Shown here: in pieces, positions 10,129 to 63,017 of the stretch
Layout: each line of letters opens with the position of its first letter
How positions within the stretch are numbered: the stretch's first letter is position 1
Origin: an uncultured Methanosarcinaceae archaeon
GTDB lineage: Archaea > Halobacteriota > Methanosarcinia > Methanosarcinales > Methanosarcinaceae
Direction of reading: 5' to 3'
Assembly (NCBI GenBank): GCA_963727895.1
Contig: CAVSHT010000009.1
Span: forward strand, 128,001-192,000
Length of the DNA: 64,000 nucleotides
Notes under the pieces: model-generated
Databases searched by the model: none
Told to the model about the DNA's origin: nothing
What the model saw: only the letters and a program-made list of their open reading frames with translations
Position numbers and translations under genes: made by a program

Positions 10129-10914
10129 ATGAAGGAACCTGTTTTTAGTTACGTACCTGGGACTTCTTTTCTTCACAGGCTTGATCCCAGGACAAAAATC
10201 GTAGCAGTAATGCTTTTAGGAATTCTGACTTTCAGGATTGAAAACTTTTGCAGGTATAGGGATTCTTTTCGCATTTTTCGTTGTCCTTGCTTTACTCTCA
10301 GCGTTGCCTATGAAAATATTTTTCAGATCAGTAAAGCCTATGATGCTGTTTATACTCTTTATTTTTCTTACAAAGCTATTTTTTACCGATGGTAAAACCC
10401 TTGCTTCTTATTGGATTTTGCAACCAAGTCTGGAAGGGTTGGAAACTGGGCTCAAACTTGCTGCCCAATTTATACTCCTTTTGCTTTTTGCAGCCCTTTT
10501 GACAGCCAGTACCGATCCTTCGGCAATTACCGCGGCATAGAAAGAATGCTAAGACCTTTACCGCTTCAATGGCTGAAAATCAGTTCTTTTGAGCTTGCTA
10601 CGATGATGAATATTTCTATAGCATTTCTTCCTCTTCTGTTTGAACGAGTTGAGAGGACAAAAGCTGCTCAGGCTGCAAGAGGAATGGATTTTGTAAGGAA
10701 TCCTCTTCGTTCAATTCCTGCCCTTGCGATTCCTCTGCTAAGAGGTGTAGTCAGGGACGCTGAGGAACTTGCTCTTGCAATGGAAAGCAGAGGTTACCAG
10801 GGAAAAAGGCGGACTTCAATACATGAGCTTTCCATGCAGAAAAGTGATTGGAGGGCTCTTTTTATCCTTACACTTTTTACCATTGTTCTTTTGAATTCTC
10901 TGAAAATAACATGA
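10129..10914 (+). pseudogene. ECF transmembrane component EcfT, two frameshifts
   Basis: HRLDPRTK N-terminus and AQAARG / AMESRG motifs split over three ORFs; may be sequencing indels. Confidence 0.85.
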
Positions 10915-11010: not shown

Positions 11011-11358
11011 ATGCAAGATAAATGTGAAAGAGTGGATTTAAAACAGATAGAATACTTGTTACAAAAGGTTCCTGATCCAGAAAATATCACACGTATGGCT
11101 GCAGTTTTTCAGGCGCTCCAGTCCGATACTCGCCTTAAAATCCTGTTCTTGCTAAGGCAAAAAGAGATGTGTGTCTGCGAACTCGAGCAGGCGCTTAGTG
11201 TTACTCAGTCTGCAGTCTCGCATGGTCTTCGAACCCTCAGACAGCTTGACCTCGTGAGGGTCAGAAGAGAGGGAAAATTTACGATTTATTATATTGCAGA
11301 CGAGCATGTCAGCACGTTGATTGAGATGTGTCTTGAACATGTGGAGGAAAAAGCATGA
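11011..11358 (+). CDS. ArsR/SmtB-family metalloregulator
   Basis: EMCVCEL, QSAVSHGLRTLR, DEHV...LEH. Confidence 0.93.
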   Translation: MQDKCERVDLKQIEYLLQKVPDPENITRMAAVFQALQSDTRLKILFLLRQKEMCVCELEQALSVTQSAVSHGLRTLRQLDLVRVRREGKFTIYYIADEHVSTLIEMCLEHVEEKA

Positions 11359-12728
11359 GCTTTGAATTCCTAGACGTTTTTCTGATCCTTATTTCAGGCG
11401 TTCTCCTCGAATCATGGAAAATCTTTGTAGAGGCAGCTCCTTATCTTATTTTCGGCCTGGGAATTGCAGGCATTCTCAATATTCTGGTTCCTGACCAGAA
11501 AATAGTGGATTACCTTGGAGCATCGGCAGGAAAAGTTCGTTCTGTTGTCAATGCATCCCTGGCAGGCCTGCCCCTTGCCACTATGCTCCTGTGGAGTAAT
11601 TCCTGCAGCTATGTCGATAAGAAAAAGGGGAGCAAACCGAGGTGCAACCCTTATCCTTCCTTATTTCGACTCCTGAGACAGGAGTAGACTCAATAGCAGT
11701 GACTTATGCTCTTCTGGACCCTCTTATGGCAGTTTTCCGTCCACTTGCTGCCCTGACGACTGCTATTCTTGCTGGACTTGCAGACAATTTTTTGATAGGA
11801 GAAGACCGAGGAAACGAAGAAAGCAGCAAAAAACAGGAAAATTCTGAGTAAAAAAGCAGGAGTGTTTGCAGCCTCAACTTTGATTGGATCTTCTGTTCAG
11901 GAAGACTCATGCAGTTCTCCTTTCTGTAGTTGCAATAATCTAGTAGATTCAAATAATAGAAAAATCGAATCTGTTGGCACTATGGTTAAAGCTATAGAAT
12001 TAAACCTTCAGGAGTAAAACCTCTTGAAATCAATAATAAACTTGAAGGTGTCCGAAAACTTACCCTAGTGAATCAAAACTTCCAGAAAGATACTACTTCA
12101 TGCGGCTGCAGAAGCTGTGGGTGCGGAGAAACAGAATCCGGAAAAGATGGGAAAACATAAGGATTCTGGAACAACCAGATTGATTAAAGGGATAAAATAT
12201 GCTTATATCGAGTTACTGGCAGAGATTTCTAAATGGATGCTTGTTGGAATCTTGTTTGCAGGAATTATTTCCTACGCAGTCCCCGAAAGCTTGATCCAGA
12301 ATTATCTGGGCGGTGGGTTCAGGTCAATGCTGGTTATGCTTTTAGTTGGAATTCCTCTTTATATCTGCGCTACAGCCTCTACTCCTCTTGCCGCAAGTCT
12401 TGTAGCCAAGGGAATGAGTCCAGGCACAGCTTTTGTTTTCCTCCTTGCAGGCCCGGCAACCAATGCAGCAACTATAACAATGGTTGCTCGTTTTCTTGGA
12501 AAACGTTCGGCAACCCTGTATCTTGCAACGATTTCCATATGTGCTATTGGGGCAGGATTCTTGCTGGACTGGTTATATCTGAAGCTAGGGATTAGTGCAG
12601 TAGCAACTGTGGGAACTGCAAAAGAATTGCTTCCTGAAGATCTGAAGCTGGGACTTGCACTTGTCCTCCTTCCTTTTATGTTATATGGTATTTTTCGCAG
12701 CGAAAAAGAGTGTGGTTGTTCTAACTGA
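11355..12728 (+). pseudogene. DUF318/SO_0444-like heavy-metal permease, frameshifted
   Basis: FLISTPETGVDS, PLYICATASTP, FLLAGPATN motifs spread over several frames with a Cys-rich linker. Confidence 0.85.
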
Positions 12729-26157: not shown

Positions 26158-27705
26158 CTACTTTTTTGTAATAAGTGATTCTCCTTTCATTTCCTCAGGT
26201 TTTGGGATCTTAAGGAGTTCCAGAAGAGTTGGTGCCAGATCGCACAGTTTTCCGTTCCTAAGAGCTTTTGTCTCACTATCCCCTACGTAAATGCATTTTA
26301 CCGGATTTGAAGTATGTGCAGTATGTGGTTCTCCTGTTGTTAGATTTTTCATCTGTTCGGCATTCCCATGGTCTGCAGTTATAATTGCTTCACCTCCGAC
26401 TTCTTCCAAAGTTGCTGTGATTTTGCCCACACAGTTATCTACAGTCTCTACTGCTTTTACTGCAGCCTCAATAATTCCGGTATGCCCTACCATATCCATA
26501 TTTGCGAAATTAAGGATTATTACGTTGTATTTTCCTGAGTTAATTCTTTTTATCACTTCATCCGTAACCTCATATGCACTCATTTCTGGTTTGAGGTCAT
26601 AAGTAGCAACTTTTGGAGAGGGAATAAGGCAACGATCTTCACCTTCATAGCATTTTTCCTGCCCTCCGTTCAAGAAGAAAGTCACATGGGCATACTTTTC
26701 GGTTTCAGCAATTCTAAGCTGAGTTAATCCATGTCTACTCAAGACTTCTCCAAGTACATTGACCAATTTTTCGGGAGGAAAAGCTATAGGCAAATCCAGT
26801 GTTTCATCATATTGAGCCATGCAAACATAGTAGACTTTTGGGTGTTTTTCTCTGGTAAAACCTTCAAAGTCTTTGTTCATAAAAGCCCAGGTAAGCTGTC
26901 GTGCTCTATCGGGTCTGAAATTAAAGAATATTATGGAATCATTATCCTGTATTACTGCCTCAGGATTTCCTGTGGAATCTGTAATCACAGTCGGTTTTAC
27001 GAACTCATCAGTTTCTCCTCTTTCATAAGATTCAGAAACTGCAGTCTCTGCATCATAAGCCTTATAGGGAGCAATTCCCAGATTCAGGGCATCATAGGCA
27101 AGTTTTGTTCTATCCCAGCGTTTATCTCTATCCATTGCATAATAACGCCCTGATACGGTTGCGATCTTAGCACTACCGTTTTCGTTACAAAAAGCATCAA
27201 GTTCCTTTATGTCTTTGAGGGCGGCTTTTGGAGGCACATCTCTACCATCCAAAAAGGCATGTATATAAACTTTTTTTAACCCTTTTTCATGTGCAAGTTT
27301 GATGAGAGAATAAATATGAGTCATGTAACTGTGGACGCCTCCGTAAGAAACAAGCCCCATGAGATGCAGGCTCGAGTTATTGACTTTGGCGTTTGAAATT
27401 GCGTTTAAAAAAACAGGATTTTCAAAGAAATCTCCGTTCTTAATTGAGAGGTTTATTCGGGTAAGATCCTGGTATACAATTCGCCCTGCTCCTATATTCA
27501 GATGCCCTACTTCAGAGTTTCCCATCTGACCTTCCGGAAGACCTACAGCCTCCCCTGAAGCTTCTAATAAACACCAGGGATATTTATTCGTTAAGTTATC
27601 AAGATTTGGAGTTCTGGATAACAGGATAGCATTTCCGTCTCTAGCTTCTCTGTAGCCCCAACCATCAAGAATTATCAGCATAAGAGGTTTTTTTGCCTGA
27701 GTCAT
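26158..27705 (-). CDS. gpmI: 2,3-bisphosphoglycerate-independent phosphoglycerate mutase
   Basis: [43 protein letters not shown]. Confidence 0.97.
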
Positions 27706-27843
27706 ATGAAGCAAATTCCACACATGTTCATAAGAAGCTTTTGATATACACTAACATATTAGCTTACTGTGATATGTTTTTGAAGATATTTGTACATTTG
27801 CAGAAATTGGTTTTTAGAAAAGTGATTTGAAAATAGATATATT

Positions 27844-29112: not shown

Positions 29113-30312
29113 GTGGAGTTGAAAATAGGTCAAGAGTTTAAAGAATTGATTCCTCCTCTCTCAGCTGAGGAGCTTACAAATCTTGAGCAGAGCCTATTAA
29201 CTGAAGGCTGTAGGGATGCTATTCTCACTTGGAATGATTGCATTATTGACGGTCATAACAGGTATTCTCTGCGTACTAAGAACAACATATCTTTTAGGGT
29301 AGAGGCTAGAGAGTTTGAATCAAGAAATGACGTTTGTATATGGATGATTCAAAACCAATTCGGCAGAAGGAATTTGGCTAATTATACTAAAGGTAGTTTG
29401 AGCCTGAGACTTAAAGAGTATTTTAGAAAGAAAGGGAAAGAAAATATTTCTAACGCTGTTTCAGTTGCTAATGCAAACCGTAGTGAAAATCCAAGTTGTC
29501 AGAAATCTGACAAGATGGAATTTTCGAAAATAGACACTAAAAAAGAACTCTCAAGGTTGGCAGGTGTATCATATGATACAATATATAAGGTTGAGGAAAT
29601 TCAGTCTCAAACTCCTTCAACGCTCCTTCCTGAATTGGAGCGTCTAATAAATTCAAATGCAATTAGTCTTAATCAAGCTCATAAATTTGTCCGTGCAATA
29701 AAAGCAATTCAAGGAAAAGTACCTGACGAGGTTACAGTTGCAAATAAAATTCTTAATGAGTTCAATCAGAATCCTTCTGTTTCCCTTGAAAGTAAGACAA
29801 AAGACGTAATACGTGAAACTCAGCGTGCAGAAAGAGACCGGCAATTGAGAGAAGCTGAAGAAAAGAAAAGACTTGCTGCAGAGCAGGCTAGAAGAGAAAG
29901 AGAATTAAAAGAAAAAGCTGAGCGTGAACGTCTTGAAAAAGAAAGATTAGAACGGGAGCGCATTAGGCAAGAACAGCTTGAGAAAGAAAAATTAAGACGA
30001 GAACAGTGGGAAAAAGAAAGAGCTGAAAAAGAGCGCATTCGAAAAGAAAAAGCAGAGCAGGAAAGAATAAAAAGAGAAAAACTTGCATTTGAACAAGCTG
30101 AAAAAGCAAGAACAGCAGCAGAGCGGACAGCAGAATTTTCCGAAGCAATGGGCATAATTACTTTGCCCCACCCACGAAAAGTATGTGTCCTTCTGTCCTC
30201 ATTCTGTTTTCGAGTTCTTTCCATTCCTTCTGAAGTTTCGCTGCCTGTTTCTCTTTATTCTTTTCCTACCTCGCGCGACGCTCTTTTCGCCTCGCCTCGT
30301 TCTCTGCTATAG
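29113..30312 (+). CDS. ParB-like N-terminal domain + HTH + coiled coil (type B, module 1)
   Basis: LIPPLSAEE, IIDGHNRY, NQFGRRNL, HTH LAGVSYDTIYKV, E/K/R-rich tail. The last ~60 aa look like read-through into opposite-strand DNA. Confidence 0.8.
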   Translation: MELKIGQEFKELIPPLSAEELTNLEQSLLTEGCRDAILTWNDCIIDGHNRYSLRTKNNISFRVEAREFESRNDVCIWMIQNQFGRRNLANYTKGSLSLRLKEYFRKKGKENISNAVSVANANRSENPSCQKSDKMEFSKIDTKKELSRLAGVSYDTIYKVEEIQSQTPSTLLPELERLINSNAISLNQAHKFVRAIKAIQGKVPDEVTVANKILNEFNQNPSVSLESKTKDVIRETQRAERDRQLREAEEKKRLAAEQARRERELKEKAERERLEKERLERERIRQEQLEKEKLRREQWEKERAEKERIRKEKAEQERIKREKLAFEQAEKARTAAERTAEFSEAMGIITLPHPRKVCVLLSSFCFRVLSIPSEVSLPVSLYSFPTSRDALFASPRSLL

Positions 30313-30522: not shown

Positions 30523-30871
30523 TTATTTTGTTAGTAGTGGGTTTACTTTTAGAACCACTTTTTCAGTAATTTCTTTATTTATAGCCATGTCATGACGCTG
30601 ACTTACTGCTCTAATTTTGGCGATCTTATTCTCCTCAGGTATTTGCTTCGGAACTTTTTGTTTTTCAGAAATTTTCCTGCCTTTTGCTTTCATAGCTTCT
30701 GTAGGTTCCTCAGGATCTTTACCCAAACGGAAAGGCCAGAGCGCGCACTTGCAAGTAAGGTTCAGCATTTGAACCCGCTGCACAGTTTTTCACGTCAAGG
30801 TATGATCCGCCGCAGCACTCTAAACAATGTGTTCTAACTGTTTGTAATAGTTTCGTTTTTGTAGTCGTCAT
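30523..30871 (-). pseudogene. Phage-type Cys-rich small protein, one frameshift
   Basis: MTTTKTKLLQTVRTHCLECCGGSYLDVKNC... joined to CALWPFRLGKDP. Confidence 0.65.
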
Positions 30872-35544: not shown

Positions 35545-36284
35545 GGAATTGTTACTTAACTATATCTAGTTATTTATTTCTGTATTTCATCAATAGAATA
35601 ACCGAGTACTTTAGCATTTCAAGACTCTTCGTATAACACTTTGTCTTTCTTCTCAACCTTGCCAGAAAGTGCCTCAATATGCTGTTATATCCTTCAACAG
35701 TATACGTTTTTGTTTTTGATTGAGTATGGATCTTTTCTGGAAGAAACTCTGCATATGCTCTCCAGTGATCTGTCATTACTTCTCCAATGTATTTTTTCTT
35801 CACTTTTTCCCAGAGTAGTTTTCCAGTTTCTGTTCCTCTGCTACCAAAAGAGCAGTTGATGAACTTTTTCCCAACTCTATCAACAGCAATCCAGATCCAG
35901 CAATATTTTTTTTGTTACCGATGTAAGTGTGCATCTCATCCATTTCAACAATAGATATCTCATTTTCGCTTTTTAGAGCCTCCAACTCCTTACCAAATTT
36001 CTTGATCCATTTTTGGACAGAAACATGACTCACCCCTAAAAACCGCCCTATTGAGTGAAAGCCCAATCCTTCAAGATAGAGTTGTAAAGCCTGTTTTTTG
36101 ACAGAAGTGGAAAAAGCAGTTGATTTTAGCTCTACTGTATAGTTATATCCACAATCATGGCATTTGTAGCGTTGACGACCACCAACTATACCATTCTTTT
36201 TGTGACTGGAACTATTGCATCTGGGGCAGTTCATGAAGAAATAGAGGTTCTCATAATAAATAACTATAGTTAATTAGCAAAGCC
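35545..36284 (-). mobile_element. IS1-family element, copy 3, with 8-bp target duplication
   Basis: 740 bp; TAAAAATA at 35537-44 and 36285-92; InsA open; inserted at the 5' end of a ParB-like gene. Confidence 0.96.
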
Positions 36285-36954
36285 TAAAAATATAGTGGAA
36301 AATGGCTTCAATTCCGCCTTTCCTGTAATCATTTGGAATAATGCCCTTATCGATGGGCATAATCGTTATCACATATGCCAAAAGCACAAAATTGAATTTG
36401 TATTTATCGAGCAGGACTTTGCTTCAAGATCTGCAGCTAAGATGTGGATTATTGAAAACCAACTTGGCAGGAGAAATATAAACAATATCATAAGAAATGA
36501 TTTGCTTGGTAGATGGTATAATGAAGATAAGAGGTCAAGAGGTAATCCTAACGGATTTGCTCAAATTAACCAATTCCGCAAAAATTGCGGAATTGGTGAT
36601 ACTGAGCCTGCAGACATAATAGTTAAACCTGCAGATATAATAGCTAAACAAGCAGGTGTAAGCTCAAGAACAGTAGAGTATGCAGCAAAGATAACAGAAG
36701 CAATAGACACAATCACTGCAAACACTGGAATTTCCAGAGCTACAATTCTGACTCGAAAAATCAATTACAAGCAGGAAGATTTAACAGACCTTGCAAAGCA
36801 TGACAAAGAATTTCAGCTCAGAGTAATGGAAAAAGTAAAATAAGACAGTGAAGACATTGGCTCTGCAATTATAAAAACTGAACGTGAAGACACTGCCAAA
36901 CAAATGGAAGAACTTGAAGCAAAAAGAAAGCAACTTCAAGATATAAAGAAGTAG
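36285..36954 (+). pseudogene. ParB-like/HTH paralog type A, module 2
   Basis: LIDGHNRY, ENQLGRRNI, IAKQAGVSSRTVE; 5' end disrupted by IS1; in-frame TAA at 36841-43. Confidence 0.8.
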
Positions 36955-38041: not shown

Positions 38042-38730
38042 TGACGGTCATAACAGGTATGCTTTGTGCACTAAGAACAACATACCCTTTTAGGGTTGAG
38101 GCTAAAGAGTTTGAATCACGAAATGATGTTTGTATATGGATGCTCCAAAATCAATTCGTTCGACGTAATCTAGATAATTATACTAAAGGTAGTTTGAGCC
38201 TTATATTCGAGGAATATGTTGAGAAACAAGTTGCTGAACGAAAATCAAATGCTATTACACTGTCAAACAAATTACGCTCAGTAAAACTAGAAGAAAACTC
38301 AATTCCGCAGAAATCTGCGGAATTGGAGACTAAGCAGAGAAGAAGAGGAATCGAGACACGCGATGCTGTTGGTAAAGTTGCCGGTGGTCTCTCATGATAC
38401 AATCTACAAAGTAAAAGAAATCAAGTCTCAAACTCCTTCAGCGCTCCTTCCTGAATTGGAGCGTTTAATAATTCCACATGCAGTAAGCATAAATCAAGCT
38501 CATAAATTTGTCCGTGCAATAAAAGCAATTCAAGGAAAAGTACCTGACAAGGTCACAGTTGCAAATAAAATTCTTAATGAGTTCAATCAGAATCCTTCTG
38601 TTTCCCTTGAAAGTAAGACAAAAGACGTAATACGTGAAACTCAGCGTGCAGAAAGAGATAGACAGTTAAGAGAAGCTGAAGAAAAAAGAAAGCAGCTTGA
38701 AGAAGAAGCAAGGCTAAACCGTGAAAAAAG
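38042..38730 (+). pseudogene. ParB-like/HTH paralog type B, module 2 (5'-truncated, frameshifted)
   Basis: Near-identical to 29247-29410 and 29575-29868, with a divergent middle. Confidence 0.88.
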
Positions 38731-38746
38731 AAATCTCTTAGTTTCT

Positions 38747-39073
38747 TTACCATTTCCAATATCCAAACCAACGTATATTTTTAGTGTTAGCCTCCTCTAA
38801 ATTACGAACAAAAAGATCAAATCCTTTTATAAAACATATTGAAGTAACAATTATATTAACTCTTAAATCATTTTCTACATACATCAACCCCATCGAAAAA
38901 TACCATATAGATTTAAATAAGTCAGTACTAAAATCTTTTTTCCATATGTATGCAAGAATTCTTATAATAATGAAAGCAACTGCAGAAAAAGGAATAAACG
39001 CAAAATCTAAATATTTTATAATGTTTCCAGCAAATAACAACCAAATAGAAAGATTCTCAAACATATTCACCAA
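38747..39073 (-). CDS. Small membrane protein
   Basis: Two to three hydrophobic segments; low GC. Confidence 0.5.
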   Translation of the reverse strand: MVNMFENLSIWLLFAGNIIKYLDFAFIPFSAVAFIIIRILAYIWKKDFSTDLFKSIWYFSMGLMYVENDLRVNIIVTSICFIKGFDLFVRNLEEANTKNIRWFGYWKW

Positions 39074-40356: not shown

Positions 40357-40446
40357 ACTGAAAAAAGGGATAATAGGTATAGTTAAAATAGAAACAAAGA
40401 AAAGGGTTTGTCAGGGCGATTCGCCGCCCCACAGTGAGTGATTTAA

Positions 40447-40704
40447 TTATTCTTGATTTCCGCCCTGAATTCCCTTCAAGGAACGGATTGCAAGAGCTAC
40501 GAATGTTACTAGGACGACTACACCTACGATATTAACACCATTATTCCAGACTGAAGCACCCGTTGTTGCATTTGCAAAGTCCCCAGATTTATTAACCGGC
40601 ATTGCCTGTGAAACTTTTTCACCAATACCCGGCCCTAAATAGAATATAATAACGAGCGTGAGAAGCCCAACACACATCCCTACAAGTTCGGTCATTGTAC
40701 TCAT
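40447..40704 (-). CDS. 85-aa helical-hairpin membrane protein, spindle-virus MCP-like or pilin-like
   Basis: Two hydrophobic helices; linker with NKS and NAT sequons; own TTTATATA box and AGGTGA RBS. Confidence 0.6.
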   Translation of the reverse strand: MSTMTELVGMCVGLLTLVIIFYLGPGIGEKVSQAMPVNKSGDFANATTGASVWNNGVNIVGVVVLVTFVALAIRSLKGIQGGNQE

Positions 40705-40881
40705 CGTTTTTTCACCTACCTTAACTATATAATCTGTTTTCCCGAGTATATAAAGACATTTAAAAATAATAGTGTGCAGCAGGCTTTGTATGTGAGAATG
40801 GTATCAAAAAAATGAAAATTGAACCCTTCTAAGGCAATCGTTATTAGCAAACTTAAAAATAAGGTTAAAGGGTTTACCCCT

Positions 40882-43800
40882 TTATCCCAACATTGTCCCT
40901 AAACTACCTAAACGATTGTATATAGTTCGTTTTTTATTTATTTGACTAATTGACTTCTTTACGGGGATTTTCACCTCTTTCTTTTTCTTTTTCGCTGAAT
41001 TTTTCTCATCACCGTTTTTCCGCATCAGTAGATATGCTAAACTACTTTTTTGAGTATTAGCCATTCTTACCGAAGCGCTTTTATTGTTAACTGATCCCGT
41101 TGAGTTGCTTGCCCCTTTTGAACCTCTTGAATTCCCCTGCAGTGCAGCTGTGGAGAACTTAGGAAGTGTCAATACTGCTTTTGAAATTTGCTTTGATCCC
41201 TGTGAGCCTTGCTTACTACCGTTTCGATTTATACTGTTGTTAGAGTTTCCAGATTTTGAGTTTGGAGATGCAACAGTCTTTTTTTGTCGAAGACACAGTA
41301 ATTGAGCCCGATCCTAGCATAGTGCTTATATTTCCCAATTTATTGAATATGGTTCTATTTCTGTTTATTTCACTGCTAGTATGCTTCACATACTGCTGTG
41401 ATTTTTTCTTTTTGTTTGTATCTATTACGTCTTTACGCTTTTTTAGCATGTGTAGGAAGGCTATTGAGCTGTTTTTAGCTGAGTACTCCGGTAAGGATTG
41501 CCCGCTTTGTGAAGTTGTGCTTTTTTCTGTCACTGATTTTACACCCTGAGATATTTTTGGGATGTTTAAATTGCTTAATATTTTAGTAATACTTGAAACA
41601 TCCGATATCGTTTTAGGTGAAACTAGTGAGAGGCTTTTGCTTGACTTTGTTCCAGCGGACGCTGAGTTTAACTTTTTACCCGCAGTTGATGCTATTGCAC
41701 TCCTGCTAGATCCTGAACGTTTTACTGCCCCCTTTGAAGAACCTAGCATATTAGGTTGATATTGAGTTGCTTTTTTGATCCAAAATCATCACTATATCTC
41801 TTGTTCACGCTTTTCAATTGATGAAACACACAAAAAGAATGAACCACTTCAGGAAAGACGCTTTTTACAGCTCCAATGATTGCTTTATCTTCATCAGAAA
41901 CGATTTTTTGTATTTTGCCTTCTGGAAATCGGTTTTTTATTCGTAGGATAAGAGAAATTAGAGCTTCAATTGTTGGTAACCTGTCAGTTACCTCAAAATC
42001 CAAAATTACCTTTTCTTTTGTAGCGATAACGTAAACGGATTGATATCGCATCTTTTTCCATTTTTTTAATGTAATCTCTCGTCCTATCAGAGTCTCAAAC
42101 TTCTTTTTCCATCCTTTCTTGACCCGATCTCCATCAATATACAAAGTTCCATCAAAATCAGGATTTTGATATAAAAGTTCTTGCTTAGAAAATACAGATT
42201 GTTTTTGCTCATGCAACCATAATGAAGAGGCACAAGGAGCTCTGCCGCATATATCAGTCAAACCTTCTGTATATGTTTCGCCTACCCTACAGGAATTGTG
42301 AAGACTGCATCTGCTATCGTATCTGACAAGCATTTGTTTGTCATAGAACTCATCACTGTAATTTGCGGATCCAGAAACACCAACGATCTGATCATGAAAA
42401 TGCTTTTTACAAGTAGGACAAATCCAGTATGTAGTATTGCAAGTTATGGTGCCATAACTTGTGAGAATTGAACGAGTATAGTGAGAGTTCACATTTAATT
42501 TAGCGCCACAAAAATCACAATGAGTAGGAGATATTAAAGAGAACAGAGAATGAAAGCGATTTTCAACTAGCAATTTCGGCAAAGGAATTAATACATTGCC
42601 TTCAAGTATCGTTTTTACCATTGAATTCTCGATTGATTTATTTCCTCTTCCCATTAAAACGAATTTATCTCAATGAAATTAAAATTTTATTGTTTTGCAC
42701 GATTGAGAAAAAAGAGGTAGACCAGAAAATAATAAAAAGTCTCTAATCTAGAGACCTCATTTTCAGCATTTTGTGCAGCCCTGTCACGTAAAGATCCGTT
42801 TGGAGCAGTAGCAGCCGAACTGATTTCACCTGCATTACTAATAATTTCATCAAAACCTTTTTTATTCCCCTGATCTTCATAAATAAACTCTTTTTCTCCT
42901 TCGGTTGTCACTCCCACAAGTTTATTAAGTTCTGCTTTAGTCGGAAGTCTATCATTTGTCACAATGAACTCAGCAACTGGGGAATACGCTTTTGATTGTG
43001 TGTTATCTATTATGTTAGGATACTTTTCTGCTACCGCTTTTGTGTAACTTACCACATCTGCAGCTTTACCCGTGCCTTTAATTACTTTGTTCGATGTTCC
43101 GATCTCTACTAGGTCACGAACATCTTTCACCCTGCCTGCGTGAGCAACTTCCACAGACTTTCCACCTTTAAGGAAAGTACTTCCAGCATATTTACGGGCA
43201 GCCTGTTCCTGTAATTTCATTAATTTTACGCCGTCGACTTTCAGCGATTTCAACTCGCCAAAGTTGTAAGCGATACCTTCCTGTTTTTGCCATCCCTGCT
43301 TAAGCTAGTCTTGTGTTTCTGCTATGTCCAAGAGGCTTGACTTTGCGTTATGGTTAAAGACTTCAACTCCTTTTTCCCAGTTCCCATTTACTTTAAAGGC
43401 TATTTTAGGCTCATTGGTGCCTTTATTTTCTACTTTGAAATCCTTGCCTTCTGAAAACCCTTTTTTAGTGGCAGCTGTAGCAAATTTCTGTATATATGCT
43501 GTTGGATTATCAACGTAGATTTCGAGATCTCCGGGGGTACGAGTCAAGTATTTTTCCATTTGCAATTTCTGCGCATTGGAACCCGCAACTTGAATTTTAT
43601 AATCAGTTCCACCTTTTAGAGACCTAACTGCACTTTTTATGCCTGAATCTTTCCCGTATGACTGGATAGACTCTGTTAATGCCGCTCGCATTTTTGTAGG
43701 CACATCAGTACTTAGTATAGAGAATTTCTCAGGATTTACAACTGTATTTTTAGCATTGTAGGCAGCGGTTGCAACACGTTTACCGGCTGCATAATATGTT

Positions 43801-46800
43801 TTATCCGCGTCACTGAGTACATCGGATACATACCTATTCAGAATCTTTTCTCCTGTTTTATCGTAGGCCTGAACTGAGCATTCAACTTTTACCTGTTTAC
43901 TTGTTTTTCCCAGTTTATTCAGCTCATTTATCGCATCCACATTTATGTAAGATTTTAGAGTTTCAGCGTTTGGAGCAACGCGACCAAGATGCAACCCGCT
44001 TTTACTGTCAGATGAAACAGTATTTAAGAAAGTTGTACCTTGATGTAGATTTCTAGTGTTTCCGCTTGATCCCAGTGAGGTCTCTTTCAAATCACCCGAT
44101 TTTAGCCCGGGGGTTAATAAGTACGGGTTTTTTGTTTCAAAAGCTTCAGCACCTTTTCCGAAGGCTTTTAATCCTACAGCTAGGGAAGCCACAACATCTA
44201 AGTCTTTTTCAATGTCAGTAAACATGTTAGTGTATTTAGCTGACGATGCTATCATGTCTACGCCCATCACGGCACCCGGTGCAGCTCCAACTGCTTTGGC
44301 TGCATAAGGTACAATTGGCTATCTTAGCACTGCTTTCAGCAACTGGCTTCAAAGCTTTAAGCGTTGCAGCGGATAAACCAAGTTCTGCACCTTTTAAAGC
44401 GGCTCCGCCTATGGCAGACTCTGCAACAAGAACACCAACGTCAGCGGCTGCGTTCAATGGTTGATTTTTAGCATAGTTATACTTGTTTACCTCCCAGTTG
44501 CGAATAGCTGAAAGCCGTGAGTCACTGTCAACTGTTTTTTCCCACTTGTTCATTACACTGTTTCCTAGTGCTTTTCTTAACGCTGAGTTTCCAGCTGTTT
44601 GAACTGTGCTTACATTAGGGATATATTTTGATACTGCTTTATTTGAAGCATCTACTGCAGCAGCGGCCCTTTTATAGCTAAAAGTATCTATAAATTTTGT
44701 ATTTAGCTTTGCGGAGGCTGCTCCAAGTCCGCCATTTTTAATCTCAGCATTATACAGAGCTAAATCAGCCGCTGCTTGTATTTCGGCTGCTTTCTGAGCG
44801 ACTGTTTTAAACGATTGAAGATCTGTAAATGTTGCTTTTTCACCTGTAAGGGTGGAATATCCATTTTTCGCCGTTGCGGTCATCGGGGATACTACTCCGT
44901 AGTTTAGCAACTTTGCAGTAGCCTGCTTTTCCTTTTCCTCCTGAGCCTGCTTTACTTTTTGAATTGCTCCATACTGTGATGCCGTCTTTGAAACTGCTGT
45001 AAGCTTACCGGTTTTATCGGTTCTTAGTACTCTTACCTCTGATTCTCCTGTGCTTGCAGCTCCGTTTGTTTGAATCTGGTGTATAACCCTGTTATTTTTG
45101 CCCACAACGTCTTTAAAAGCCGCATTTAGCTTTTTTGCTGTTTCTGCTTCGATTTTTGCTGCTGCTACTGCCGCAGTGTACCCCGCATTTGAAGTAGCAG
45201 CTTTTGCTCTACCACCTACGGTGGCACCTGTCAGGTATTGTTGAGTTGTAGTTTTTCCCTTTGCAATCATTGCCTTATAGTCGGCTAAATTTTGAGATTT
45301 TTCCGCAACGGAGGAACCATATATTGTTTTAGCAACCTTTGAGTTAGGATTTGAGGCCCCATTTTATTCAATATCAGCTGTCCTGATTAAGGGAGAGGAT
45401 TCCTTTATCACACTAGCATGATTGGAAGTAACTTGTTTCGCTAGTTTGTTCAGATTCTCAGAAGTGGCTTTTGCAGTCGAACAGGTACCAGCCTGCAATT
45501 TCTTTGCTTGTGCAGATATGACTTTGGGAGCTACAGCTTTAACCGCCTGTGTCGTTGCGGTTAATTTTGTTGCGAGTTTTGCAGTAGCAGTTGAGATAAT
45601 TTTTGCGGGTGCTGTTTTTGAAGCTGCAACTGAACCTGAGGTTGCAACTCCCTTGGAGTAGTTTGAACTTTTCGTGTTAGAAGGATTGTTTATATTGTTT
45701 GCAACATGTGAGACAACCCCCTTTGATTCTAAAGCGGAGCTCTGGGCAAGTTCTTTTTGTATGTCTGCAATCTGTCCCTCTGCCTTAGCATTAGCTGCAT
45801 TGCGAGCAGCTGTAACTGAGGCACTTTCTTTAGCAGCGTCCTCTAGATACACAGGCGGAGACTGTGTATTGGCAGGAGCTTCATAATACCATTTTATATA
45901 TGCAGGGTTGTAATGTTTGCCTGTGTTGTTTGAGGCTTCTCTTGCATTCCACTTGTTGAGTGTCTGCTGTTCTTGAGAATTGAGACTTCCAGAATAATAA
46001 TTTGAAGTTGTAGTATTTGCAGCTGCTGCACTCGCTGCTTTTACTGATTGTGCTTTTACAGTAGCGGTATATGCTTTTTCAATTGCAGTACTATAGGAAT
46101 CTATAGCGGACTGTGCTTCTTTCTGCGTTTTGTATGTGGTTGTTTTAGGCGCAGTTGCAGACACTCCATAAGCCTTTGCAGTCGCTGATAAGGATTTCAC
46201 AGAACTTGATATGTCGTATGTTGTAGTAGTGGTTGCAGTTGCAACTTTAGTAGAGACAGACCCCCCGCTCGAAGAGGTAGTTTTTGCAGAACTACTTGCG
46301 TTTGAGCTTAGTTTTTTATTAACCTCAGTTGTATAACTATCAATTATACTTTGAGCTTTCTTTGAGTCTGTAATTGTTGAGCCATAGATTTTAGGCTTGG
46401 ACACACTTAAACCAGCTGCTACAGCCTGTTTGTAAACACTTGCGAGAGCGGAATCTACGTCATAATACGAAGCGGTCTTAGCTGCCGCTGAAGCTGTGAC
46501 ATTTTTAGCCGCTGTTGCTGCCTTACTAGACTGACTAGATTGACTAGGTTGGCTGGCTTGTGAGGTTGTGGTATATTTTGCAGCAATTAGCTCATTTGCC
46601 TTTGAAACATACGAGTCGACTATGCCTTGAGCTACAGAAGCACTTTTTATGGATTTGCCATAAGAAGCCGGAATGGTTAAACTAACACCATATGCAGCAG
46701 CCTGTGCTTTAATAGATGCAAGTGCAGAATCAATATCATAATATGTATCAGAAACTGTAGATCCAGTACCACGTACTGCAGTGTGATTACTTGTTACATT

Positions 46801-47055
46801 TGAAGTTAATTTACTTTTTGATGTTAATGCAGCACTTTTTACAGCGTTTACAACAGTCTGTTTTTTTGCTGAAACTACTGAAGATGAGGACGAGGCAGTT
46901 GTAGATGATGTATTAGCGGCAAGCCGGGCATCGTTGGCAGCTTTAGCCTTTTGAACTTCAGCACCATTTGAACCGGTTACCACTTGAAGCGAGCCGTCTG
47001 CTGCTGTATATTTTAGAATAACCCCGCCACTTGGAGTTGAGCCATAAATTAACAT
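40882..47055 (-). pseudogene. Giant A/S/T/K-rich protein (~1,700 aa or more) with internal repeats and a nucleotidyltransferase-like domain
   Basis: Six collinear ORFs joined by an in-frame TAA (45364), a frameshift (~44310), an in-frame TAG (43305), an IS insertion and a frameshift (~41280). Confidence 0.75.
41770..42748 (-). mobile_element. Truncated DDE transposase element (ISNCY/ISMac19-like, tentative)
   Basis: CDFC...CPTC Zn ribbon, LYIDG, IVSDED, FCVFHQ; 3' part missing; interrupts the giant gene. Confidence 0.8.
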
Positions 47056-47107: not shown

Positions 47108-47392
47108 TTAAGCTTTCGTTACACGAACAGTTGCAGAAGGCAGCTGGGATTGTAAGTGTTGCTTTACAGCAGCAGCAGGCACATCAAGATTTTTTAAATA
47201 TGTAATTTTATGAGATATTACATACCCCTGCTGTGTTTTAACCGTTGCACCGAAAGTCCCTTTTTGAACCTTGGTTTTAATACGTTTTTTAGCAGCGGAG
47301 GCCTCTGCGAGAGACACAAAGGGGCCGAACTTCTGTTCAACAACTATACGTAATTTTTTAGAGGACGTTTTTTTCATTACCATGGTTGCCAT
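47108..47392 (-). CDS. Basic hypothetical protein
   Basis: Intact 94-aa ORF directly upstream of the giant gene. Confidence 0.7.
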   Translation of the reverse strand: MATMVMKKTSSKKLRIVVEQKFGPFVSLAEASAAKKRIKTKVQKGTFGATVKTQQGYVISHKITYLKNLDVPAAAVKQHLQSQLPSATVRVTKA

Positions 47393-47562
47393 TCCTGAGA
47401 CTAATATATAATTATATTATATAAAATATAATTAGTCTGTAATAATAGTTATGCAAGCAGAGTATATAAGTATTTCTGCAAGAAAAACAGGATTAGAAGA
47501 AATGAAAATTAAAAAAGGAAAATAGTAATAAATTGAAGGTTGCGCAGTAGTTTGTATTACAA

Positions 47563-48101
47563 CTACCAAGCAACATTATAACCTAGAACTGTATCCAGAC
47601 TGTTATAATCTGGATTTCCATGGCGCAATGAGACAGGGGGTATAGGCGGAGCCTACCTTTAGGTCTACACGCTTGTCTGATTCTGTGCAATCGATGTAGA
47701 TTCTACCACGGTCTGTTGTGTCGAAGGCATTGCAGGCGTGACCAAAACCGCGACCAAGAGTGACTGCAACGAATCCGCAGGTTATAACCCGCAGCTTCTG
47801 CATGATTGTGTAGCATTTCGGCATAATCGGCACATTGAAACGAACTATTGTACAACATTTGATCTGTCGTGTCATTATCGACAAAATTGATTACCTGTTC
47901 ATAAGTAACGTATGTTGCATTTGGATTTTCAGTTAGGTTAATGTGGTGTCCATCTGCACCTAAATAATCCAACTTATGTACGTTGGCACTGTCTGAGGGG
48001 AAGAGATATGCGAAAGTTAACATTACTGCAAATACAGCAAATACAGCAAATGCAGCAAAAAAGCCTAAAATACAGACTTCTAGAATATCTTTAAAACCCA
48101 T
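47563..48101 (-). pseudogene. Membrane-anchored transglutaminase/papain-like Cys-His-Asp protein, frameshifted
   Basis: N-terminal TM, FQCADYAEMLHNHAE, then GHACNAFDTTDRGRIYIDC in the next frame. Confidence 0.65.
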
Positions 48102-52199: not shown

Positions 52200-52802
52200 T
52201 CATAATTTTGAGCGCCCCCTCACCCTGACAGCCTTTTTTGTATTACTCTGTTCCTCCAAAGCTTGCATTTCCAATGGTGCTAACATTAATTTTTGGGTCT
52301 CTACAATTATTCCCAGTAAGTCTATTTTCCCCTTTAAAACCTCAATTTCATCTCGTTCAACTGATAAATGTGCCGCTTCTGCCCGCAAAATATCATTTTC
52401 ATTTTTAATATCTTTATATGCTGCACCCTCTGACACATCAAGTTCTTTTTGGATAGTGAGATAAGGTACAAATTTTTTATAATACTCCTTCAATCCATCA
52501 ACATCCGCTTGATAATAATGGTTTTGTGTAGCAGGCAAAGAGTGCCCCATAAACTCTTCGGCATGGAAAAAGTCACATCCGGCGTTCAACATAGCTGAAT
52601 TAAAATACTTCCGCATGGTATGAGATCGGATTAAACCATAATTTCCCTTCTGAGTTTTCTTACTCGCTTTTGCTGCTAGATCTTTAAAAAGTTGAATAAA
52701 ACCAAATCGGTTAAATACACGCTCTTTTTCGTCAAAAGTATTTAAAAAAGTACTTGCAACCTTGCGGCGACAAAAAAGATAACTTGAGTCGTCATAAATA
52801 CC
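52200..52802 (-). pseudogene. Tyrosine recombinase/integrase, C-terminal fragment
   Basis: IRSHTMRKYF (HxxR), FMGH, NHYY; frame open to 52802; N-terminal part absent. Confidence 0.9.
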
Positions 52803-53013: not shown

Positions 53014-53628
53014 ATGAGTCAAAATATAAAAGATATCACGAATATTCGTGATATAAAAATAACAGATTTATCTGGAAACCCCGCTCCTCTAGGTTTGATG
53101 GGATTCGGAATGACGACTCTGCTCTTGAATTTACATAATGCAGGCTTTTTTCCAATGAATGCAATGATCCTTTCTATGGGTATATTTTATGGTGGGTTGG
53201 CTCAGGTCGTTGCTGGAATCGAAGAATGGAAAAAAGGAAATACTTTTGGAGCCACGGCTTTTACCTCGTATGGTTTTTTCTGGCTTAGTCTGGTAGGAAT
53301 TGTTCTACTTCCAAAATCTCCAGACTATGCAGGATTAGCGGCAAATTCACTCGCTTTTGCCTCATATTTACTCATGTGGGGAATCTTTACCTTATTTATG
53401 TTCATAGGTACATTGCCAGGCTCAAAGGCGCTCTCGGTTGTATTTCTAACTCTCACAATACTGTTCATCTTGCTGGCAATAGGGAACTATCTGGGTGCTG
53501 AGGGTGCAGGTGCCGGAATACTCAGAATAGCTGGTTATGAAGGAATTCTTACAGGACTTTCCGCAATATACACAGCACTTGGTCAGGTACTAAACGAAGC
53601 ATATGGAAAGAAAATAGTTCCGTTATAA
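53014..53628 (+). CDS. satP: Acetate uptake transporter (GPR1/FUN34/YaaH)
   Basis: [25 protein letters not shown]. Confidence 0.93.
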
Positions 53629-62277: not shown

Positions 62278-63017
62278 GGTATTGTTACTTAAATATATCT
62301 ATGTCTTTATTTCTTTATTTCATCAATAGAATAACCGAGTACTTTAGCATTTCAAGACTCTTCGTATAACACTTTGTCTTTCTTCTCAATCTTGCTAGAA
62401 AATGCCTCAATATGCTGTTATATCCCTCAACTGTAAATGTTTCTGCTTTTGATTGAGTATGACTCTTTTCTGGAAGAAACTCTGCATATGCTCTCCAGTG
62501 ATCTGTCATCACTTCTCCAATCTCTTTTTTCTTCAATTTTTCCCAGAGTAGTTTTCCAGTTCCCGTTCCTCTACCACCAAAAGAGCAGTTGATGAACTTT
62601 TTCCCAACTCTATCAATAGCAATCCAGATCCAGCAATATTTTTTTTGTTACCGATGTAAGTGTGCATCTCATCCATTTCAACAATAGATATCTCATTTTC
62701 ACTTTTTAGGTCCTCTAACTCCTGACCAAATTTCTTTATCCATTTTTGGACAGAAACATGACTTACCCCTAAAACTCTTCCTATTGAACGAAAGCCTAAT
62801 CCTTCAAGATAGAGTTGTAAAGCCTGTCTTTTTACAGAAGCGGAAAAAGCAGTTGATTTTAGCTCTACTGTATAGTTATATCCACAATCAGAGCATTTGT
62901 ACCGTTGACGCCCACCAACTATACCGTTCTTTTTGTGACTGGAACTATTGCATCTGGGGCAGTTCATGAAGAAATACACTTTCTAATAGTATATAACTAT
63001 GTTTAAGTATCAATGCC
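62278..63017 (-). mobile_element. IS1-family element, copy 5
   Basis: 740 bp; IRs GGTATTGTTAC / GGCATTGATAC; InsA open; no clean target duplication. Confidence 0.95.

Follow-up and report, generated by a model that had tools for sequence, protein, structure and literature searches.

A probable spindle-virus-type capsid protein gene in a decayed integrated element of Methanosarcina

An intact open reading frame of 85 codons, encoding a small protein with two hydrophobic segments, lies among broken genes in a methanogen chromosome, which raises the question what function the protein had and what kind of element left its gene there. The window (the whole stretch of 64,000 nucleotides that was analysed) is located on contig C9 of a genome assembly of 3.67 Mb in 19 contigs, which is 84% complete. 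Core genes end at the phosphoglycerate mutase gene at 26158-27723 and resume at a GPR1/FUN34/YaaH gene at 53014, and the region between them is a low-G+C island rich in broken genes. From high to low coordinates and on the same strand, the island contains a truncated integrase gene, small ORFs, a frameshifted gene, the gene for a 94-aa basic protein, six pieces of a giant gene and the 85-aa ORF, which is the final recognisable gene of a decayed integrated element. The features of the window are:

52317..52799, minus strand: truncated tyrosine integrase, C-terminal part only, at the island edge beside core genes (tblastn, PHROG)
47603..48101, minus strand: frameshifted gene of a membrane-anchored protein, orthologue of an intact 158-aa gene in the genome UBA289 (tblastn in two frames, E 6e-22)
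47108..47392, minus strand: intact gene of a 94-aa basic protein, conserved beside the giant or the capsid-like gene in related elements (tblastn)
40882..47055, minus strand: six ORF fragments (563, 344, 321, 188, 169 and 96 aa) derived from a single giant gene rich in Lys, Ala and Ser (tblastn, reading frames)
41743..42654, minus strand: IS transposase ORF with MULE domain, within the giant gene (Pfam PF10551, E 2.6e-7)
40705..40760, minus strand: promoter and leader of the 85-aa ORF, comprising TTTATATA (40747-40754) and, 7 nt ahead of the ATG, AGGTGA (40712-40717)
40447..40704, minus strand: gene of the 85-aa two-helix membrane protein, candidate major capsid protein of the His1/SSV1 type (ORF with ATG start and TAA stop)
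40385..40446, minus strand: G+C hairpin and T-rich runs 3' of the 85-aa ORF, a plausible archaeal terminator (weak fold)
30719..30871, minus strand: gene of a small Cys-rich protein; the elements in genomes G003 and G012 carry a related 82-84-aa gene (tblastn E 5e-6 and E 0.001)

The decay of the element is extensive. What is left of the integrase aligns with residues 234-382 of the 451-residue G003 integrase (tblastn E 5e-39), and it also matches the G012 integrase and a PHROG integrase family. The giant-gene fragments match residues 201-406 and 1095-1472 of an intact 1,987-aa protein of UBA289 (tblastn E 2e-34 and 7e-64), and the gene is interrupted in five places: an in-frame TAA separates the 563-aa piece from the 344-aa piece, a frameshift the 344-aa from the 321-aa piece and an in-frame TAG the 321-aa from the 188-aa piece, then follow an IS copy and a second frameshift, which separates the 169-aa and 96-aa pieces. 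The IS repeat spans approximately 41771-42700 or beyond, and four further copies with 99% identity are present in the genome. The product of the frameshifted gene is possibly cysteine-peptidase-like, judging from its motifs. The 94-aa basic protein shares 40% identity with a 104-aa protein of G012 (tblastn E 1.6e-19; 43% in alignment A5), and a second copy of TTTATATA is found upstream of its gene at 47418-47425. The gene of the small Cys-rich protein suggests that the remnant, or a second one, may reach to about 28 kb. A homologue of the ATPase found in related elements was not detected in the whole genome, and of their replication genes only distant matches to the helicase region of the primase-helicase were obtained (23-26% identity, contigs C4 and C5). 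The element in the window is a dead remnant, a fossil without evident function rather than a virus. The earlier note on this DNA had already described decay of the neighbouring genes, and the six pieces of the upstream giant gene and the frameshift in the 158-aa-type gene bear this out.

The hydrophobic segments of the 85-aa protein comprise approximately residues 7-27 and 57-73 (approximately 1-29 and 51-80 with a 19-residue hydropathy window). Between them lies a polar loop, residues 28-56, with the sequons N38-K-S and N45-A-T, and the C-terminal tail, RSLKGIQGGNQE, has a net charge of +1. The ORF call and this layout agree with the previous description of an intact 85-aa ORF with two hydrophobic helices, a loop containing NKS and NAT, and a basic end. 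An AlphaFold2 model based on a nine-sequence alignment places helices at residues 4-34 and 46-81, with low confidence (mean pLDDT 62.3). With its size and topology, the protein falls into the range of spindle-virus capsid proteins, which have about 70-90 aa and two hydrophobic helices connected by a short polar loop. The TATA box and the AGGTGA ribosome-binding site that had been ascribed to the gene are both present at the positions listed above. A single instance of the composite pattern TATA-N20-32-AGGTGA-N4-10-ATG was counted in the window and no instance in 100 shuffled versions, a result that is descriptive only because the pattern was written after the site had been seen; TTTATATA alone occurs 21 times in the window, compared to 6.8 expected occurrences. 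The region upstream of the orthologue in UBA289 contains a similar TTTTTATA plus GGAGGGTGA. Of the downstream hairpin with T-tract that had been proposed, a 5-bp GGGCG/CGCCC stem (about 40414-40429) with T-rich runs behind it (about 40385-40406) is indeed present, but its folding is weak (-13.8 kcal/mol, z -1.9; 8 of 200 shuffled sequences were as stable).

Nine close relatives of the 85-aa protein were found among 5.8 billion clustered proteins, and a family search with E <= 1e-3 yielded 28 matches among 1.84 billion representatives. Within the genus, 6 of 59 Methanosarcina genomes contained matches to the family, four as open frames and two with internal stops, while a sample across the phylum gave matches in 5 of 401 genomes, corresponding to 3 of 121 genera. 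Neither IMG/VR viral contigs, searched with the alignment of the close family (A1) and the sequences P0025 and P0014, nor phage and archaeal-virus records, searched by tblastn, yielded a relative. The family alignment used for profile comparisons (A2) contained 34 sequences, from which the fragments P0011, P0015 and P0018 had been dropped, as had P0016, an M57 peptidase of 599 aa with FG-GAP repeats, whose match was made up of six short stretches. The close and the distant halves of the family are clearly related to each other (hhalign 99.0-99.8%), and in 33 of the 34 members the loop contains one or more N-x-S/T sites. The family is patchy in its distribution and is carried on integrase-bearing mobile elements.

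The genomic context was intact in five relatives (UBA289, also designated G037, as well as G003, G012, G277 and G449), and in all of them the gene has a tyrosine integrase as well as a primase and/or helicase as neighbours. The three Methanosarcina elements, those of UBA289, G012 and G003, consist of an integrase, a variable replication module, the two-helix protein and an AAA+ ATPase. Their gene content, together with that of the two more distant carriers, is:

UBA289 element, about 19 kb: integrase; DnaG-type primase fused to a DUF927 helicase; 94-aa gene; 158-aa membrane protein; 99-aa basic protein; giant protein; 82-aa protein; inserted IS200/IS605; three small genes; 312-aa ATPase; then host genes
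G012 element, about 24 kb: integrase; PrimPol; SF3-type helicase; ParB-like gene; 104-aa basic protein; 1,670-aa giant protein; 207-aa membrane protein; 87-aa two-helix protein; second recombinase; small genes; 303-aa ATPase
G003 element, about 8.7 kb: integrase; 527-aa P-loop protein; 85-aa two-helix protein; 86-aa basic protein; recombinase fragment; small genes; 364-aa ATPase
G277 (about 8 kb) and G449, more distant genomes of the phylum: two-helix protein with neighbouring integrase and primase and/or helicase

In UBA289 (locus L004), the 82-aa homologue, which is 61% identical to the 85-aa protein, follows the giant gene, present there as a single ORF of 1,987 aa. The giant protein of G012 is homologous to the one of UBA289, and the ATPases of these two elements are 69% identical. 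A large gene upstream of the two-helix gene is found in UBA289, G012, G449 and the window, in G449 in the form of a 517-aa and a 569-aa ORF immediately upstream, and the giant gene is absent from the G003 and G277 elements. The giant protein carries repeats, each about 55 aa long, in its N-terminal part, and neither a signal peptide nor a C-terminal anchor nor a likeness to known adhesins was found for it. The ends of the UBA289 and G003 elements carry no exact repeat of at least 12 nt, G012 has two 12-mers that may be due to chance, and no tRNA genes flanking the intact elements were found.

In the three Methanosarcina elements, the ATPases (303-364 aa) match phrog_5484 with E-values of 8e-12, 1.4e-13 and 7e-7, the first two over nearly the full profile, and the same PHROG includes B251 of SSV1 (E 5e-101) and ORF16 of His1 (E 3e-62). 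When an alignment of the three proteins was compared to single reference sequences by hhalign, it reached 96.8% with SSV1 B251 (E 2.7e-10, 188 columns), 23% with His1 ORF16 and 1.0% with VP8 of the pleolipovirus HRPV-1. Judged by these profile comparisons, the conserved ATPase of the three Methanosarcina elements is of the fusellovirus type. It accompanies the two-helix protein in three of the five relatives with intact context; within 20 kb of the gene in G277 and G449, no ATPase of this type was detected at E <= 1e-3.

The two-helix proteins themselves are moderately similar to His1 capsid proteins. The window protein has no match in Pfam or among the PHROGs, a search of the genome with PF25665 (His1_capsid) yielded nothing at E <= 10, and three of 26 family members gave His1_capsid matches, all below threshold (E 0.18-0.77). 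Comparison of the complete family alignment with an alignment of 20 His1-type capsid proteins (A3) by hhalign resulted in 60.6%, with a score of 27.9 over 58 columns, and a proline after helix 1, an S-x-W-N motif in the loop and a tryptophan before helix 2 coincide in the two alignments. Reversed controls scored 21.2 and 20.4, and none of 200 block-wise column permutations reached the observed score (mean 13.4, sd 3.3, maximum 25.4). In the same set-up, the accepted pair of the His1 family and SSV1 VP1 gave 61.0% and a score of 27.3. Against the His1 profile, the window protein scored 16.9, compared to a maximum of 15.6 among decoys (72 other ORFs of 65-125 aa with two hydrophobic segments from its own genome), and 21 of the 34 family members exceeded this decoy maximum. 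The close family alone (A1) reached 10.9% with the His1 family, and the 11-sequence distant subset (A4) reached 17.6%, which is below its reversed control of 33%. Single sequences of SSV1 VP1 and VP3 gave no significant similarity to the family (hhalign 5.8% and 1.1%). A bridging search with the A2 profile, limited to the 8,000 candidates that had most words in common with it, returned 23 proteins, none of them with PF25665. In the ESM Atlas, the nearest unnamed clusters (0.92-0.93) were 80-90% viral and the nearest named clusters, all below 0.9, were His1-capsid (0.85 and 0.84) and VP1_VP3 (0.85), similarities that serve as leads only. Foldseek found no match for the 85-aa model in the PDB, and the wide VIA-align search retrieved generic helical hairpins with Z-scores of 7-9; structure comparison was not discriminating because only such hairpins were recovered with a low-confidence two-helix model. 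The family profile likewise retrieved from the sequences of solved structures only chance membrane matches with E 0.29 or worse. Altogether, profile similarity argues for a moderate, not proven, homology to His1-type capsid proteins.

Because three independent lines of evidence, namely integrase-bearing elements, a B251-type ATPase partner and a moderate but controlled His1 profile similarity, support it, we consider it probable that the 85-aa ORF is the major-capsid-protein gene, encoding a two-helix hairpin of the His1 VP21/SSV1 VP1 type, of an integrated spindle-shaped-virus-like Methanosarcina element, which is dead in this genome. What the data show directly is the gene with its layout and expression signals, its presence on integrase-bearing elements, the B251-type ATPase beside it in three of them and the decay of the copy in the window; capsid function, membrane topology, glycosylation and virion shape are what we infer. 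In a live relative, the capsid-like protein would be produced under the control of a strong promoter and ribosome-binding site of its own. It would insert in the cell membrane such that its two ends are inside and the loop with the sequons is exposed outside, available for N-glycosylation. Aided by the B251-type AAA+ ATPase, the protein might then be assembled around the circular viral DNA. The two products encoded immediately upstream, the giant protein rich in Lys and Ala and the small basic one, could be further virion or DNA-binding components. The earlier proposal of a spindle-virus structural protein is therefore the best-supported reading, with the mobile elements, the ATPase in three of five relatives and a His1 profile similarity that equals the VP1 control in its favour, but no Pfam match was found and the A4 subset failed its reversed control. 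The alternative of a filamentous virus, which had been offered in the same proposal, found no support.

The main rival to the capsid reading, which we regard as rather unlikely, is that the two-helix protein belongs, as a small membrane protein, to an integrated plasmid or another non-viral mobile element and that its likeness to capsid hairpins is convergent or compositional. Such a protein could act in membrane remodelling, vesicle formation or entry exclusion, or have another accessory role. The smallest carriers, those in G277 and G003, hold little besides the integrase, replication genes and the two-helix protein, but they could also be defective elements or satellites. The lack of relatives in the searched viral collections, the position of the His1 similarity below every curated threshold and the failure of the A4 sub-alignment point in the same non-viral direction. 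On the other hand, co-occurrence of the fusellovirus-type ATPase in three of five relatives speaks against a non-viral element, the permutation, decoy and positive-control tests all favoured His1-type capsid proteins, and a strong promoter and ribosome-binding site of its own precede the gene, with conservation in UBA289.

Far less probable is a VP3-like internal membrane protein of a pleolipovirus-like enveloped virus, in which the giant protein would be the spike or fusogen. Related methanogen viruses are mentioned as unclassified in the available text of the ICTV summary (PMC12451623), and the combination of a small membrane protein, a large protein and an NTPase module is superficially alike. 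However, the family gave 0.26% in hhalign with VP3 of HRPV-1, a single reference sequence, the ATPases resemble B251 rather than VP8 of the same virus, and a spike is at odds with a giant protein that has neither a signal peptide nor a C-terminal anchor.

It is very improbable that the protein is a conjugative pilin of an archaeal DNA-transfer system, either VirB2/TrbC-like, which was the alternative named in the earlier note, or CedA1/TedC-like. Size and two-helix hairpin layout agree with a pilin, and one of 26 family members gave a sub-threshold match to TrbC (E 0.59), but the window protein itself did not match PF04956, the VirB2/TrbC pilin family. Searches with Pfam and PHROGs detected no VirB4, VirB6, VirD4 or HerA/FtsK-type gene in the window, UBA289, G003 or G012, and no type IV secretion system (T4SS) genes were reported beside the copies in G277 and G449, for which an ATPase HMM and BLAST only were used. 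The only conserved ATPase is of the B251 type with about 300 aa, and no pilin family was among the nearest ESM Atlas clusters listed. According to the earlier note, a restriction of the homologues to VirB4/T4SS genes or core loci, without similarity to capsid profiles, would speak against a capsid protein. Its suggested survey of homologue neighbourhoods led instead to integrase-bearing elements, and this objection does not apply because no T4SS genes were reported beside the copies in these searches and a moderate similarity to the His1 capsid profile is present.

A domesticated host gene, retained by selection after the death of the element, might be suspected from an ORF that is intact with promoter, ribosome-binding site and terminator-like signals amid broken neighbours, but this too is very doubtful, since intactness of 258 nt is expected by chance at the local density of disruptions, the copies in G002 and G075 contain internal stops and the gene is present in merely 6 of 59 genomes of the genus. 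The remains of the giant gene contain about four point disruptions in about 5 kb; at this rate, we estimate, about 0.2 events would be expected per 258 nt, and an ORF of this length would stay intact about 80% of the time, so that intactness requires no selection. The contrast between an intact ORF and decaying neighbours had been pointed out before, and both parts of the observation hold, but as a sign of selection the contrast carries no weight.

His1 (Halspiviridae) is among the closest known systems. His1 VP21 (PF25665) has 73 aa compared to 85 aa here, and it has two hydrophobic helices, a proline after helix 1, a loop with S-x-W-N and N-x-S/T, a tryptophan before helix 2 and a basic C-terminus in common with the family; the His1 genome also encodes a phrog_5484 ATPase. 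In contrast to VP21, the family has a longer loop and a motif, G-D-F-A-N-x-T-T-G-A, that is absent from His1. Moreover, His1 is a linear, protein-primed, non-integrating halovirus, whereas the elements described here have integrases and primase/helicase modules. SSV1 (Fuselloviridae) resembles these elements in the two-helix hairpin of VP1 and VP3 (PF06281, VP1_VP3) with sequons in the loop, in the ATPase, for which B251 is the closest reference, and in its integrative lifestyle. As in the elements described here, the capsid gene in the SSV1 record is preceded by a large gene (C792) and has the gene of a small basic protein (VP2) in its vicinity. Some family members have N-terminal extensions, which we take to be reminiscent of the VP1 propeptide. 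Unlike in SSV1, the integrase genes are whole and not split by integration, and the giant protein of 1,670-1,987 aa is Lys/Ala-rich and was unlike C792 by any search run. With the VirB2/TrbC and CedA1/TedC pilins, the family has the small hydrophobic two-helix hairpin in common but differs from them in that no T4SS, Ced or Ted genes were seen beside the copies and in the fusellovirus-type ATPase partner.

To our knowledge, very few methanogen viruses are known. As far as the available parts of two publications report, spindle-shaped Methanosarcina viruses have so far been inferred only from metagenomes (PMC9796341, PMC12451623). Methanosarcina spindle-shaped virus 1 (MSSV1, Eurekaviridae, PQ167755) is described in the accessible text as having a predicted Methanosarcina host, a circular genome and two copies of the capsid gene (PMC12451623), and contig C1697 as a spindle-shaped Methanosarcina virus from a metagenome with a protein-primed polymerase (PMC9796341). 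According to the same excerpts, the capsid proteins of both were recognised only via profile similarity to SSV1 and His1 capsid proteins (PMC12451623, PMC9796341). Compared by these partial descriptions, the elements reported here are different in having a single copy of the capsid gene, an integrase and primase/helicase replication modules. In the Asgard wyrdviruses, according to the available text, the module is built from a capsid protein of the His1 kind (about 80 aa, two hydrophobic segments), a large adhesin, several small genes in a block and an AAA+ ATPase that resembles B251 and has no membrane anchor (bioRxiv 10.1101/2021.07.29.453957). The order of giant protein, two-helix protein, three small genes and ATPase fits this spindle-virus module as far as it is described there; by description, the host phylum is different. 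In a literature search with partial coverage, no paper on integrated spindle-type Methanosarcina proviruses was found, and the passages retrieved from PMC13573593 did not mention them.

We tentatively raise the possibility that the window remnant and its relatives in UBA289, G012 and G003 form a new family of temperate, spindle-shaped Methanosarcina viruses, distinct, by description, from the Eurekaviridae. Its marks would be a capsid-protein family without a Pfam model, interchangeable replication modules and a new Lys/Ala-rich virion protein of 1,700-2,000 aa. If this were true, an inducible member would make a temperate spindle virus available for the first time in a methanogen that is genetically tractable. 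If the capsid reading itself is right, the protein family can serve as a marker by which integrated proviruses of the spindle type may be found in Methanosarcina and in two or more further genera of the phylum, and the three genomes with intact elements offer candidates for induction. The value of the locus lies in the family marker and these three elements; the copy in the window is a fossil. A match was also observed at locus L005 in a bacterial metagenome-assembled genome (Zhongshania), with 26% identity and an E-value of 2e-4 calculated among candidates only.

Three Methanosarcina genomes harbor integrated elements, apparently intact, that are related to the decayed element of the window:

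L007:13023-L004:14580, UBA289 element, apparently intact and integrated
L026/L027 (G012:C11 about 226194-250094), G012 element, apparently intact and integrated
L015:12939-L016:4543, G003 element, apparently intact and integrated

Common to all three are the two-helix protein, i.e. the family of the 85-aa ORF in the window, and the B251-type ATPase. Their replication modules are unlike one another: the UBA289 element has a DnaG-primase with a DUF927 helicase, the G012 element a PrimPol with an SF3 helicase, and the G003 element a P-loop protein of 527 aa. Two more copies of the two-helix gene were found in other genomes:

L017:2836-3042, G002, copy with internal stop codons
L023 (G075:C538:9617-9865), G075, copy with internal stop codons

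Because of these internal stops, and because no other element genes were seen on the G002 contig bearing the copy, both represent further fossils.

The Lys/Ala-rich giant gene, which lies upstream of the 85-aa ORF in the window, encodes very long proteins in two of the related genomes:

L004:3835-9798, UBA289, giant protein of 1,987 aa
L026:118-5130, G012, giant protein of 1,670 aa

No family match was obtained for either protein. Both consist of 12% Lys and 10-12% Ala and contain repeats of about 55 aa at the N-terminal side (pattern YYDVD...AGVSL.KP..YG....AQ.IID.Y), a single, central hydrophobic patch rich in Gly and Ala, and a basic C-terminus; the UBA289 protein includes a stretch of X that originates from N in the sequence record. 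In the window, one of the two in-frame stops of the giant gene is a TAG (43305-43307, minus strand). Methanosarcina can read TAG as pyrrolysine in some genes; even so, the window gene remains disrupted, through a TAA, through frameshifts and through an IS. The block of giant-gene fragments is headed by an intact gene for a 94-aa basic protein, directly upstream of which a second perfect TTTATATA (47418-47425, minus strand) is likely to be the promoter of a former operon comprising the 94-aa gene and the giant-gene block.

The island additionally contains three mutually related ParB/Srx-like genes or fragments ('IIDGHNRY'), all akin to a gene of 230 aa that the G012 element carries:

29113-30312, plus strand, with a long Glu/Arg/Lys-rich tail
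36295-36843, plus strand
38059-38800, plus strand, broken into two overlapping ORFs

The IS at 41771-42700, whose transposase ORF has a MULE domain, occurs at least five times in the genome at 99% identity, on contigs C9, C11 (twice), C13 and C14. The N-terminal part of a Zn-finger and HTH transposase is encoded by two HTH_23 ORFs:

35570-36234, minus strand, followed by a 77-aa fragment, with which it looks like a split IS transposase
62533-62979, minus strand, second copy

Elsewhere in the window, an ArsP-type permease appears split into two ORFs separated by about 430 nt:

11355-11687, plus strand, N-terminal part
12117-12728, plus strand, C-terminal part

In the BioY/ECF cluster, the CbiQ gene (10238-10914, plus strand) matched its profile in the C-terminal part only and is overlapped by the ORF upstream of it. 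The permease and CbiQ genes are possibly pseudogenes or assembly errors.
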